Under the pieces are notes generated by a model that was not told the DNA's origin, searched no databases, and saw only the letters and a program-made list of their open reading frames with translations. A stretch of 64,000 nucleotides of DNA, from the NCBI GenBank assembly GCA_964016885.1, contig OZ024742.1:109430001-109494000 (forward strand). The letters run 5' to 3'. Made by a program: the position numbers and the translations under genes. Source of the stretch: Eledone cirrhosa (lineage: Eukaryota). This document shows positions 521 through 63,338 of this stretch, in pieces. Position 1 is the stretch's first letter. The number at the start of each line of letters is the position of its first letter.

Positions 521-717
521 TAACGGAGGAAATGTGGTAAGAAACCAGGTGGACCATAACGCACCAAAGTACTCAATACTTAGGGTAGTAGAGTGGGTAA
601 TAGGAACGAGTAGCACCCCGACGGCTGAGCTCAAGCCGTTTCGACGGCTAATTCTGGACTCAGAATTACCCGTCGAAACGGCTTGAGCTCAGCCGTCGGG
701 GTCCTACTCGTTCCTAT
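521..717 (+). mobile_element. Fold-back repeat element, family B (probable PLE pseudo-LTR remnant), between (TA)n tracts
   Basis: Hairpin at ~600-717; homologous to 32378-32705 and to the reverse complement of 61401-61590. Confidence 0.75.
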
Positions 718-930
718 ATATATATATATATATATATATATATATATAAATATATATTTATATATACATATACATACATACATATATATATATATATATA
801 TATATATATATATATATATATATATATATATATATATATATATATATATATATATATATATATATATATATATATATATATATATATATATATATATATA
901 TATATATATATATATATATATATATATATA
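714..930. repeat. (TA)n microsatellite
   Basis: Direct reading. Confidence 0.98.
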
Positions 931-3759
931 TGAGAGACGTAAAATAAGAAAATTATCAAATTAACTTACTTACTAAAATATCACTTCCAACTAATTAGTT
1001 TCTGAAATGGAATAAATATATTTTCTGAAGAAAACATAAAGAATCATTTCTTCGTCAGGGAAGACTATTCTCATCTAAGTATCCAGGCAAAGCGGGGACT
1101 CTGGAAACTTATTCAAAAATAATTCAGTGGATAGAAAATAGCAAAGCGTGGACTGAATTCCTAGCCATTGAGAAAATCACTGCCTCTGCGTCGGTGGCAA
1201 ATTCAAAAAGAATCAATCACGTGACATCGAGGTCAATCAGTGGAAAGTGGTTTGCTAATAAGACAGCGGCCTGCCTGCTACCATAGCAGCAGTCGTGGCC
1301 AATATTGCTCGACAAATAATTTTTGGAGATAATTATAAAGAATTAATATCTAGTAACATATATATACATACAGATGCATATCAATGCTAGCAAATAAATA
1401 GGTTTTGTCTTAGTAACTTTGTGGTTCAATGCATGGGGTTGCAGAACAATAATATGAGAGACGTAAAATAAGAAAATTATAAAATTAACTTACTTACTAA
1501 AATATCACTTCCAACTAATTAGTTTCTGAAATGGAATAAATATATTTTCCGAAGAAAACATAGAGAATCATTTCGTCGTCAGGGAAGACTATTCTCATCT
1601 AAGTATCCAGGCAAAGCGGGGACTCTGGAAACTTATTCAAAAATAATTCAGTGGATAGAAAATAGCAAAGCGTGGACTGAATTCCTAGCCATTGAGAAAA
1701 TCACTGCCTCTGCGTCGGTGGCAAATTCAAAAAGAATCAATCACGTGACAACGAGGTCAATCAGTGGAAAGTGATTGACCTCGATGTCACGTGATTGATT
1801 CTTTTTGAATTTGCCACCGACGCAGAGGCAGTGAATTTCTCAATGGCTAGGAATTCAGTCCACGCTTTGCTATTTTCTATCCACTGAATTATTTTTGAAT
1901 AAGTTTCCAGAGTCCCCGCTTTGCCTGGATACTTAGATGAGAATAGTCTTCCCTGACGACGAAATGATTCTCTGTTTTCTCCAGAAAATATATTTATTCC
2001 ATTTCAGAAACTAATTAGCTGGAAGTGATATTTTAGTAAGTAAGTTAATTTTATAATTTTCTTATTTTACGTCTCTCATATTATTGTTCTGCAACCCCAT
2101 GCATTGAACCACAAAGTTACTAAGACAAAACCTATATATTTGCTAGCATTGATATGCATCTGTATGTATATATATGTTACTAGATATTAATTCTTTATAA
2201 TTATCTCCAAATTATTTGTCGAGCAATATTGGCCACGACTGCTGCTATGGTAGCAGGCAGGCCGCTGTCTTATTAGCAAACCACTTTCCACTGATTGACC
2301 TCGATGTCACGTGATTGATTCTTTTTGAATTTGCCACCGACGCAGAGGCAGTGATTTTCTCAATGGCTAGGAATTCAGTCCACGCTTTGCTATTTTCTAT
2401 CCACTGAATTATTTTTGAATAAGTTTCCAGAGTCCCCGCTTTGCCTGGATACTTAGATGAGAATAGTCTTCCCTGACGACGAAATGATTCTCTGTTTTCT
2501 CCAGAAAATATATTTATTCCATTTCAGAAACTAATTAGCTGGAAGTGATATTTTAGTAAGTAAGTTAATTTTATAATTTTCTTATTTTACGTCTCTCATA
2601 TTATTGTTCTGCAACCCCATGCATTGAACCACAAAGTTACTAAGACAAAACCTATATATTTGCTAGCATTGATATGCATCTGTATGTATATATATGTTAC
2701 TAGATATTAATTCTTTATAATTATCTCCAAATTATTTGTCGAGCAATATTGGCCACGACTGCTGCTATGGTAGCAGGCAGGCCGCTGTCTTATTAGCAAA
2801 CCACTTTCCACTGATTGACCTCGATGTCACGTGATTGATTCTTTTTGAATTTGCCACCGACGCAGAGGCAGTGATTTTCTCAATGGCTAGGAATTCAGTC
2901 CACGCTTTGCTATTTTCTATCCACTGAATTATTTTTGAATAAGTTTCCAGAGTCCCCGCTTTGCCTGGATACTTAGATGAGAATAGTCTTCCCTGACGAC
3001 GAAATGATTCTCTATGTTTTCTTCAGAAAATATATTTATTCCATTTCAGAAACTAATTAGCTGGAAGTGATATTTTAGTAAGTAAGTTAATTTTATAATT
3101 TTCTTATTTTACGTCTCTCATATTATTGTTCTGCAACCCCATGCATTGAACCACAAAGTTACTAAGACAAAACCTATATATTTGCTAGCATTGATATGCA
3201 TCTGTATGTATATATATGTTACTAGATATTAATTCTTTATAATTATCTCCAAATTATTTGTCGAGCAATATTGGCCACGACTGCTGCTATGGTAGCAGGC
3301 AGGCCGCTGTCTTATTAGCAAACCACTTTCCTCTGATTGACCTCGATGTCACGTGATTGATTCTTTTTGAATTTGCCACCGACGCAGAGGCAGTGATTTT
3401 CTCAATGGCTAGGAATTCAGTCCACGCTTTGCTATTTTCTATCCACTGAATTATTTTTTAATAAGTTTCCAGAGTCCCCGCTTTGCCTGGATACTTAGAT
3501 GAGAATAGTCTTCCCTGACGACGAAATGATTCTCTATGTTTTCTTCAGAAAATATATTTATTCCATTTCAGAAACTAATTAGCTGGAAGTGATATTTTAG
3601 TAAGTAAGTTAATTTTATAATTTTCTTATTTTACGTCTCTCATATTATTGTTCTGCAACCCCATGCATTGAACCACAAAGTTACTAAGACAAAACCTATA
3701 TATTTGCTAGCATTGATATGCATCTGTATGTATATATATGTTACTAGATATTAATTCTT
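931..3759. repeat. ~520-bp tandem array with head-to-head inversion (about 1.6 units forward, then about 3.8 units inverted)
   Basis: TGAGAGACGT at 931 and 1455; inversion centre GAGGTCAATCA-gtggaaag-TGATTGACCTC (loop 1764-1771); inverted units start at 1772, 2292, 2812 and 3334. Confidence 0.95.
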
Positions 3760-3773
3760 ATATATACATATAG

Positions 3774-61590: not shown

Positions 61591-61695
61591 ATATATATAT
61601 ATATATATATATATATATATATATATATATATATATATATATATATATATGTGTGTGTAAAAAGAAATTAAAAGATGGTTAAAAAAAGTTCCATG

Positions 61696-61763
61696 TATTT
61701 TATTATTATTTCAAAAACAAATATCATCGTGGGACGATATTTGCGTTCTCATCAGATAAAATA
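61696..61763 (-). ncRNA. Hammerhead-like motif with a long stem II
   Basis: Reverse strand TATTTTAT-CTGATGA-gaacGCAAATATC..GATATTTGTtttt-GAAA-TAA-TA-ATAAAATA; flank shared with 47218-47260. Confidence 0.6.
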
Positions 61764-61854
61764 GGGAGATATGATATGATGCCTAAAAAAAACACTTGTG
61801 AACAAGGTAGTGTCTAGTCATTATAGATATATATGTGTATATATATATATATAT

Positions 61855-63338
61855 ATATTGTTATATTTGGGGAGGGTCATATTAGCGTAATATTTCCAGA
61901 ATTAATAACAGAACACACTCACTGTTTGGTTGGTTTTCGCTTCTCGCTGTCTTTTATATATATATATCTGCGATCTAACTTACTCGGTCCTCAATGTTGC
62001 CATTGACTGACCGGCGGTCAAAAATAATACAGATACAATATAGACAAACACATATATATATAGTTTACATAAATCTTTCGTTGCACATCTGCAACATCGT
62101 CAGTGGTGTTATATTCATTGTTCCTCCTGTTGTGTTGTATGTCTACGCCATTTTTTTTTTTGTTCAGTCTGTCTATATATTTATTTATTTATTTGCTTGT
62201 TTGTTTATCTTATTTTATTTTGTCTTCTTTGCGCATGCGTTTGCGTGTGTGTATAGTGTTATGTGTGATGTGTGACTAGTGTGTATAGTGTTGTGTCTGC
62301 TGGGTGACTAGTGTGTGTTTATGTGCTTGTGTATGTATTTATTTATCTTATTTTATTTAATTTAATTTACTTATTTATTTATACTTCTCTTAGGTCAGTG
62401 TTGTTTGTTTGGGTGTTGTTGTTGTTCCACTCATTCTTTCTGTTTAGCTTTGGTCTTCTAATTTCTATTTCACTGGCCTCTCTGATTTGCCTATCTGCTG
62501 GGTCATTCCTATGTTTAGATATTATTCTAATTTCTATGTTGTCTATGTTACCGTCATGATGTTGTCTAGCATGTTCATATAGACAACATCATGACGGTAA
62601 CATAGACAACATAGAAATTAGAATAATATCTAAACATAGGAATGACCCAGCAGATAGGCAAATCAGAGAGGCCAGTGAAATAGAAATTAGAAGACCAAAG
62701 CTAAACAGAAAGAATGAGTGGAACAACAACAACACCCAAACAAACAACACTGACCTAAGAGAAGTATAAATAAATAAGTAAATTAAATTAAATAAAATAA
62801 GATAAATAAATACATACACAAGCACATAAACACACACTAGTCACCCAGCAGACACAACACTATACACACTAGTCACACATCACACATAACACTATACACA
62901 CACGCAAACGCATGCGCAAAGAAGACAAAATAAAATAAGATAAACAAACAAGCAAATAAATAAATAAATATATAGACAGACTGAACAAAAAAAAAAAATG
63001 GCGTAGACATACAACACAACAGGAGGAACAATGAATATAACACCACTGACGATGTTGCAGATGTGCAACGAAAGATTTATGTAAACTATATATATATGTG
63101 TTTGTCTATATTGTATCTGTATTATTTTTGACCGCCGGTCAGTCAATGGCAACATTGAGGACCGAGTAAGTTAGATCGCAGATATATATATATAAAAGAC
63201 AGCGAGAAGCGAAAACCAACCAAACAGTGAGTGTGTTCTGTTATTAATTCTGGCAATATTACGCTAATATGACCCTCCCCAAATATAACAATATCTGTTT
63301 CGACACACGATTTCATATAAAAAACCTCGCAAAACTAA
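61855..63338. mobile_element. PLE family A 3' end duplicated as a ~714-bp-arm palindrome
   Basis: Arms 61855-62568 / 62580-63294 with an 11-nt loop; encodes YEHARQHHDGNIDNIEIRIISKHRNDPADRQIREASEIEIRRPKLNRKNEW (62379-62579 on - and 62581-62769 on +); (TA)n flanks. Confidence 0.88.

Follow-up and report, generated by a model that had tools for sequence, protein, structure and literature searches.

We analyzed a 64,000-nucleotide stretch of the Eledone cirrhosa genome (assembly GCA_964016885.1, contig OZ024742.1, positions 109,430,001 to 109,494,000; hereafter the window) that carries 14 inverted repeats. Eleven of these palindromes are head-to-head pairs of 5′-truncated copies from Penelope-like element (PLE) systems, mostly ending in (TA)n. 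Eight of the pairs were traced to parents that encode a GIY-YIG endonuclease, the other three to non-coding tandem units with the same behavior, which likely ride on Penelope-like families. A first-pass annotation of this DNA had called the density of palindromes unusual and had proposed that PLEs generate them by reverse transcription with self-priming or template switching. We conclude that the palindromes are real, mostly PLE-made, and known in kind, and that the proposed source is right, but the fold-back mechanism probably is not.

Inverted Repeats of the Window

Self-BLAST and inspection located each of the 14 inverted repeats near the place where it had been reported. When the window was shuffled in 200-nt blocks, none appeared in any of 10 shuffles, and the observed repeats are thus not due to chance. 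Arm identity ranges from 85.7% (26224–26415) to 100% (55203–55369), in agreement with the earlier description of arms as perfect to clearly diverged; the highest values, 99.9–100%, belong to the palindromes at 55203 and 61855. The sites are real, but several of the extents were given too short, as the longer arm continues beyond the paired part. Corrected extents are 928–3764 (instead of 931–2598), 29317–30049, 33108–34232, 55203–55954, and 61855–63339. The features are listed here in order along the window, with L numbers denoting other loci that were compared.

522–660, minus strand: long arm with tail, the 3′ end of PLE family B, with its 5′ end in loop II of a hammerhead-like motif; GIY-YIG parent in L260, L263, L265, L266, L273, and L277
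661–717, plus strand: family B tail-less short arm, (TA)n at its end
928–1776, minus strand: tail-less arm, 1.6 units of NA1, a non-coding tandem unit of 522 bp that carries a type I hammerhead-like motif
1772–3764, plus strand: NA1 tailed arm with 3.8 tandem units and a tail of 119 nt
26224–26415, no strand: old AT-rich inverted repeat around (TA)24, arms 85.7% identical; not assigned to PLE
29317–29969, minus strand: long arm of family H, a non-coding tandem unit of ~550 bp in which no canonical hammerhead core was found
29962–30049, plus strand: short arm of family H, cut at (GT)n
31153–31247, no strand: unique 95-bp segment, not a repeat family and not PLE; inverted partner at 32992–33086
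32992–33086, no strand: inverted partner of 31153–31247, 98.9% identity
33108–33705, minus strand: tailed arm (tail ~190 nt) from the 3′ untranslated region (UTR) of PLE family D; L134 and L138 have a GIY-YIG frame upstream
33707–34232, plus strand: family D tail-less arm, split by a later short interspersed nuclear element (SINE; 33842–34034), (TA)44 at its end
38609–38749, minus strand: family C PLE 3′ end, tailed arm; same-strand upstream endonuclease frame in L279, L289, L290, and L292
38748–38812, plus strand: family C tail-less arm, extending further 5′ than the tailed arm
45541–46230, minus strand: family A2 (a relative of A), with GIY-YIG C-terminal remnant, 3′ UTR, hammerhead core 45777–45748, and tail
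46255–46456, plus strand: family A2 tail-less arm, hammerhead core 46262–46291; a 12-mer tandem (46209–46261) lies at the joint
46769–46944, minus strand: tail-less arm, the 3′ end of PLE family E; L151 has a GIY-YIG frame upstream
46944–47142, plus strand: family E tailed arm, 34-nt tail, (TA)37 at its end
48431–48731, minus strand: family J hammerhead-bearing unit (core 48583–48558), tail-less arm; no coding parent found
48730–49128, plus strand: family J tailed arm, split by a later SINE (48761–48956)
54065–54262, no strand: inverted SINE fragment plus sequence without another copy among the loci compared, around (CT)n(AG)n, 88.1% identity; not assigned to PLE
55203–55301, minus strand: family F PLE 3′ UTR, short arm; exceptional in lacking the normal 3′ end and (TA)n
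55288–55954, plus strand: family F long tailed arm, (TA)33 at its end; GIY-YIG frame upstream in L171
61401–61455, minus strand: family B tail-less arm
61454–61590, plus strand: family B tailed arm
61855–62582, minus strand: family A (young PLE) arm without a tail, containing the GIY-YIG C-terminus and hammerhead core 62103–62075 and reaching 14 nt further 5′ than its partner
62580–63339, plus strand: family A tailed arm, 45-nt tail (63295–63339), hammerhead core 63046–63074, (TA)14 at its end

The link between palindromes and PLEs drawn by the first-pass annotation thus applies to 11 of the 14 sites, but not to 26224–26415, 31153/33086, or 54065–54262. Its report of GIY-YIG remnants inside the arms is borne out at two sites (45596 and 61855), whereas the remaining 12 have none; families B, C, D, E, and F carry no coding remnant in the window, yet have GIY-YIG parents upstream in other copies. 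Hammerhead-like cores are present at 45596, 48431, 61855, and 931. In five of the 11 PLE-system pairs (A, C, E, F, and J), each arm contains sequence that the other lacks. The SINE copies of ~197 nt within single arms at 33842–34034 and 48761–48956, which are among 13 SINE pieces in the window, indicate that those two palindromes are older than the SINEs. A further fold-back of the family B type, absent from the earlier list, lies at 32380–32560 with a 13-mer tandem at its joint, and a separate hammerhead core (32648–32672) is located downstream of it.

Concerning the three non-PLE sites, a genome search with the 95-bp arm of 31153/33086 returned these two places only (2/2 candidates). The duplicates lie 1.7 kb apart, adjoin the tail end of the family D insertion, and may be the trace of a small inversion whose breaks were staggered. 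For the non-SINE part of 26224–26415 and 54065–54262, no convincing further copy was present among the loci compared, a comparison that was not genome-wide.

The palindrome density of the window is ordinary for this genome, contrary to what had been claimed. We used a detector that masks simple repeats, requires at least 35 matched bases, and allows spacers up to 2.5 kb. Applied to the whole window, it recovered 12 of the 14 repeats (missing 26224 and 48431) along with three additional clusters; two are SINE-SINE pairs, and the third combines separate copies of family C. Six 10-kb pieces of the window yielded 12 inverted repeats, compared with 87 in 50 background stretches of 10 kb taken at round-number coordinates on 16 contigs. 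The background rate is 1.74 per 10 kb (2.0 on four large chromosomes), and resampling gives P = 0.37 for the difference. The window itself is therefore not special.

Arm Ends and Junctions

The palindrome at 61855–63339 belongs to family A, whose full open reading frame, P0001, lies outside the window and spans 1216 amino acids. By eye, P0001 contains the reverse transcriptase (RT) motifs DKSG, DVVSLY, QNEG, and YVDD, a C-terminal VVY..YIG, and, judged against the description in PMC8557442, the endonuclease motif VVYSIRCTEGTC...YIGET...QH...EH. The linker ahead of the endonuclease, CTNRKCIIC, matches the CX2-5CxxC of Neptune/Nematis elements. A Pfam scan of the whole of P0001 returned 0 families, and profile searches of PDB gave weak RT-core matches only; the top named homolog is an Octopus vulgaris protein with 69% identity. 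Residues ~255–420 of P0001 (L044:4406–8056) form a long asparagine-rich in-frame insert before the RT. In P0077, annotated as an O. vulgaris dynein regulatory complex subunit 6-like isoform, a segment is 74% identical to a fifth of the PLE RT/endonuclease region and represents either an exonised element or a gene-model error.

A 176-nt family A query found 945 candidates in the 3.0-Gb genome; the 40 that were scored are all 100% identical and all on contig C1. These 40 were taken with 3–10 kb of context and represent 28 independent insertions, of which 16 have a head-to-head partner and 12 do not. Each of the pairs has its own junction. Among the 12 unpaired insertions, one has a masked 5′ side and another (L058) carries an 18-nt inverted scrap. 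Tandem units of 4145 bp are present in L043/L044, L050, and L059/L060. The hammerhead-like core CTGACGA-N-stem II-GAAA has 44 matches in loci L031–L060. No hammerhead family was among the best 150 of 182 Rfam matches, which are microsatellite-driven microRNA families and similar entries below gathering scores.

The paired insertions follow a simple rule. Each of the 17 junctions (16 plus that of the window) lies between an arm that stops at position 4144 and an arm with a tail of 43–64 nt. The outer ends, where in view, both lie in (TA)n, including those of the window palindrome, and such tracts would mask any target-site duplication. The tail is on the longer arm in eight pairs and on the shorter arm in nine, with the window palindrome (99.9% identity) among the nine. 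In these nine, each arm holds sequence absent from its partner and so cannot have been copied from it, a result that argues against simple self-priming fold-back. Arm overlap varies from 76 to 3340 nt.

The two arms of a pair nonetheless have a common source. With low-complexity parts excluded, 16 pairs include one or more family-polymorphic sites, and in 15 of them the two arms match at every such site (joint log10 P of about −4.8 over the 15 under random pairing); in 7/17 pairs both arms share private alleles found in no other examined insertion. Microhomology of at least 2 nt occurs at 6 of 14 measurable joints, compared with 14% by chance (p = 0.009). This test left out L047, which could not be anchored, and also L054 and L060, whose joints contain templated patches.

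The non-coding unit NA1 behaves in the same manner. It has 1598 candidates in the genome; the 25 loci examined (21 independent) include 11 head-to-head pairs. With the window pair added, 11 of 12 have one end at position 404 and the other at 523, and 7 of these 11 rule-following pairs have mutually exclusive arm sequence. The NA1 motif resembles a type I hammerhead with stem I, core, stem II, a palindromic stem III, and a GUU site, but has one extra A before GAAA. In 12 motif copies, stem II shows a compensatory change from GAAATG/CATTTC to GGAATG/CATTCC, and the minimum-energy fold of the monomer does not adopt the hammerhead structure. The left arm of the window copy differs from all four right-arm units at positions 342 and 459. 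We dropped these differences as evidence for two templates, given that the right-arm units are 99.5% alike and were possibly amplified later.

Family B, represented in the window at 600, 61401, and 32380, consists of adjacent pairs at 21 of 25 loci (two of the loci are duplicates, and the query required a tailed arm). In 19 of these 21 pairs, both arms stop at positions 96–107, inside loop II of the hammerhead-like motif. In this motif, stems I and III are intact and a GUC site is present, and nearly all copies (L258–L276) keep CTGAGAAG in place of CTGANGA, which may represent a natural variant of the hammerhead core. Longer copies continue upstream into a GIY-YIG frame. A splice-acceptor explanation of the stop point was discarded, as there is no constant upstream exon beyond the joint. 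The stop point also carries TCATTT, which we take to be similar to the initiator consensus; a transcription start at this position is our guess.

The one-tail rule extends to families D (7/8 pairs), E (5/5), F (4/5), and H (4/6), as seen among 20, 20, 20, and 15 loci, respectively. Tails are 34–190 nt long depending on the family. Family J retains its hammerhead core in most of 15 loci, together with tandem structure and some pairs. In L103, L109, L115, and others, new pairs sit in the (TA)n tracts left by earlier pairs, and such re-insertion creates chains of palindromes from different families.

The contribution of PLEs to palindromes elsewhere was assessed in the 87 background repeats with a library built from the window families only. 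By library match, 15 are head-to-head pairs, two are tail-to-tail clusters of neighbors, six are SINE pairs, and 64 have no assignment; the library covers 4.1% of background bases versus 14% of arm bases. TATATA adjoins an outer end in 49/87 repeats (at exactly one end in 41), compared with 5% of control positions. Hammerhead-like cores are directed outward in 11 cases and inward in one. These signatures agree with the earlier suggestion that PLEs are a major source of palindromes. A library match or a TA end is present in 50 of the 87 repeats, and 41 of the 56 stems that reach 50 nt and 90% identity bear a PLE signature. The PLE share of background palindromes is therefore between about one sixth, judged by sequence, and somewhat over half, judged by signature.

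Origin of the Head-to-Head Pairs

Given these features, each of the 11 truncated pairs was probably made in one insertion event with two reverse-transcription starts rather than by fold-back. Specifically, the GIY-YIG endonuclease would nick both strands of a symmetric (TA)n tract; the tract is evident as the target, and double nicking is suggested by in vitro work on another PLE. Each nick would then prime cDNA synthesis on element RNA, one at an upstream start site to give the tail-less end and the other downstream to give the tailed end. The two fixed ends are observed, and we presume that they are start sites. Both cDNAs would be copied from the same source, as their shared haplotype indicates, possibly from one RNA molecule copied twice. 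Each would stop at its own point, sometimes at what may be a common barrier in the hammerhead region, where the arms of family B are seen to end. The truncated ends would be joined by microhomology or templated patching, both of which are found at the junctions. The product would be a near-perfect inverted repeat at about half of all insertions, genome-wide.

The nearly even placement of the tail (8 versus 9), together with the shared haplotype, argues against simple fold-back and for two starts primed from both (TA)n strands. Two starts would fit most simply, with one at each nick, both on a single transcript or on several from one locus. In the only in vitro system, the purified PLE protein cuts and extends both target strands, synthesis begins at two positions that delimit the tail, and the protein is predicted to be a dimer (Frangieh 2024, PMC11167929).

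Several observations weigh against two starts, or against the breadth of the PLE assignment. The case for the mechanism is drawn entirely from genomic geometry, and one tail per pair might also result if a hairpin intermediate were trimmed at two staggered sites. Shared private alleles could result from arm-to-arm gene conversion after insertion. In the in vitro system, start-site use is the same on both strands, and nothing described there enforces one site per arm (PMC11167929). Near-symmetric joints are mildly in excess (3/16 within 75 nt; permutation mean 0.6, p = 0.018), as fold-back also predicts. Exceptions to the geometry exist: L056, a duplicate of the L055 junction, has a tail on both arms; the arms of L057 differ at one family-polymorphic site; one family B pair in L109 has no tail; and the arms at 55203 and 29962 lack the normal 3′ end. 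The C-terminal part of P0001 matches Pfam RVT_1 at E = 1.4e-4, below the cut-off, and Pfam GIY-YIG matches one of seven aligned homologs and not P0001 itself. No coding parent was found for NA1, H, or J; for NA1, no continuous coding frame was present in 25 loci, and the PLE fragments beside L079 belong to another family. Finally, sequence matches assign 15 of the 87 background repeats, and the remainder of the PLE share depends on the TA-end signature, which TA-targeting miniature inverted-repeat transposable elements (MITEs) could mimic; 8/87 have TA at both ends.

The closest alternative invokes a self-primed hairpin of PLE origin, formed by cDNA fold-back or by self-priming of an antisense transcript, whose ends the endonuclease would cut at staggered sites before they are joined to the target. 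Such a hairpin would explain why the arms share one haplotype and private alleles, why near-symmetric joints are in excess, and why family B arms stop within ~11 nt of each other. It also has published precedents, given that self-priming has been proposed (PMC3846280) and the tail has been ascribed to endonuclease resolution (PMC8557442). However, plain snap-back predicts that the second arm is a subset of the first and that the tail is always on the longer arm, which holds in only 8/17 family A pairs, and the mutually exclusive arms in 7/11 NA1 pairs conflict with it as well. To accommodate these data, a longer intermediate must be trimmed either way round, and the ends of the tail are the places where reverse transcription starts in vitro (PMC11167929). 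We consider this route unlikely. It is also quite improbable that host repair at (TA)n cruciform breaks, or template switching during replication, duplicated the neighbors of TA tracts and involved PLEs merely because they sit there. This scenario suits the three non-PLE cases, which have a (TA)24 center (26224), a CT/AG center (54065), or unique sequence (31153/33086), whereas in the other 11 the TA tract is outside rather than central. Host repair further predicts equal numbers of head-to-head and tail-to-tail arrangements, but the background counts are 15 versus 2 by library match, with hammerheads outward by 11 to 1, and the tailed arm holds element sequence missing from its partner.

The notion that the palindromes are MITEs or foldback DNA transposons, with terminal inverted repeats and a TA target, draws on the MITE-like appearance of the short TA-flanked palindromes of families B and J and on the background repeats with TA runs at both ends. 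It is contradicted by copy-specific junctions and asymmetric ends (tail versus none) in A, B, NA1, D, E, F, and H, by 5′ truncation of variable length, and by the continuation of B, C, D, E, and F upstream into GIY-YIG frames. This reading is refuted for the traced families and may hold for some unassigned background repeats; for the palindromes as a group it is highly improbable. An assembly or library artefact, caused by amplification or by read fold-back chimeras, could be suspected from the 99.9–100% identity at 55203 and 61855. Public contigs and restriction-site-associated DNA sequencing reads on 61300–63420 and 55100–55480 were swamped by other repeat copies, and no listed piece spans a junction. 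Arguing against an artefact are arm divergence of up to 14%, the later SINEs in single arms (33842 and 48761), arm-specific tails beyond what a chimera could create, and the recurrence of the same rule in at least seven families on many chromosomes. Thus an artefact is very unlikely, except possibly for 55203.

Relation to Known Elements and Double-Stranded RNA

The palindrome structure itself has been published, and our mechanistic counts add to it. Like the Neptune/Nematis-type endonuclease-containing (EN+) PLEs (Craig et al. 2021, PMC8557442), the elements described here have a single RT and C-terminal GIY-YIG frame, the CX2-5CxxC linker, and a hammerhead in the pseudo-long terminal repeat (pLTR), and they show partial tandems, an inverted 5′-truncated copy at the 5′ end, a one-ended tail, and a (TA)n target. 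They differ in that tails are 34–190 nt rather than 30–40 and inverted partners are very frequent (16/28 in family A). The features that generate tandem and inverted PLE structures are called undefined in that source. Penelope of Adineta vaga (Arkhipova et al. 2013, PMC3846280) shares head-to-head inverted repeats, microhomology joints, an asparagine-rich ORF insert, and action in trans on pLTR-bearing sequence. Its structures were inferred to arise by self-priming on an antisense template, whereas the arm geometry reported here favors two separate starts. Two start sites bounding the tail, an AT-rich target, cutting and extension of both strands, and a predicted dimer have been described for PAc Poseidon in vitro (PMC11167929). 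Those are data for PAc, of the Penelope/Poseidon clade, and inverted insertions are not derived from two starts in the text covered.

Hammerheads are known from the pLTRs of PLEs (Cervera and de la Pena 2014, PMC4209133), as is an internal promoter (Schostak 2008), and animal non-LTR (long terminal repeat) retrozymes have been proposed to be non-autonomous PLE passengers (bioRxiv 10.64898/2026.07.22.740005). NA1 and J resemble retrozymes in being non-coding tandem units with type I hammerhead-like cores, and go beyond them in showing the full PLE insertion signature of two 3′ ends, head-to-head pairs, and a TA target. Unlike retrozymes, NA1 has one extra base before GAAA; it is a candidate passenger by signature and not by homology to a coding parent. 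Among the papers that our literature searches listed, no title or abstract beginning derives inverted PLE insertions from two cDNAs or assigns octopus palindromes or double-stranded RNA (dsRNA) to PLE pairs.

A related process is the twin priming of L1, in which both target strands prime cDNA and microhomology joints result, but the inverted pieces do not overlap. The pairs described here share the joints and, as we propose, the priming from both strands, but their arms overlap almost fully to give a palindrome. The overlap in the 17 family A pairs does not fit an L1-type product.

Several other repeats occupy the window, which is AT-rich and laden with microsatellites. A 30-bp satellite of ~42 copies (59899–61172) contains an imperfect palindrome, TAGACG...CGTCTA, inside each unit and yields many self-inverted BLAST matches, and a diverged 65-bp tandem repeat (52140–52376) has a TTAGGG motif per unit. 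A non-LTR retrotransposon at 9450–12345 carries a 711-amino acid RT frame (Pfam RVT_1, E = 2e-24) and a downstream frame in which Zn-knuckle and restriction-like endonuclease-type motifs were recognized by eye; 3′ fragments of this element, at 6382–7700 and 56551–57428, terminate in (ACAT)n. Two diverged L1/Tx1-type fragments (42816–44264 and 3755–4746) are 71% alike (zf-RVT, E = 5e-9).

PLEs have been recently active in O. vulgaris (PMC13282606, the main text of which contains neither “palindrom” nor “editing”). Octopus was found to rank first in genomic potential for long, near-perfect dsRNA and to give one of the two strongest signals of hyper-editing (Porath 2017, PMC5625713); it was left out of the repeat analysis in that work, in which Penelope is heavily edited in lizard. 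Ubiquitous editing has been placed on young repeats (Albertin 2022; Zhang 2023), and the word “Penelope” does not occur in the main text of Albertin 2022. It is possible, though less likely than not, that a PLE dimer copies one RNA twice, from its two internal start sites, on both nicked (TA)n strands with the palindrome as its normal product, and that such pairs, many of them made by non-coding hammerhead passengers, supply most near-perfect octopod hairpins and are the hitherto unannotated source of the exceptional octopus load of dsRNA and adenosine-to-inosine hyper-editing.

The roughly one thousand near-identical young copies in a single genome allow models of PLE insertion to be tested by counting, and the counts favor two starts over fold-back, in agreement with the sole in vitro system. 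For annotation, short PLE pairs can be mistaken for MITEs or SINEs. If transcribed, PLE pairs would form long dsRNA, and the 41 strong background stems that bear the PLE signature provide a concrete and testable candidate source of octopus dsRNA. Should the same be true of Octopus, its unusually high dsRNA potential could be due to PLE pairs.

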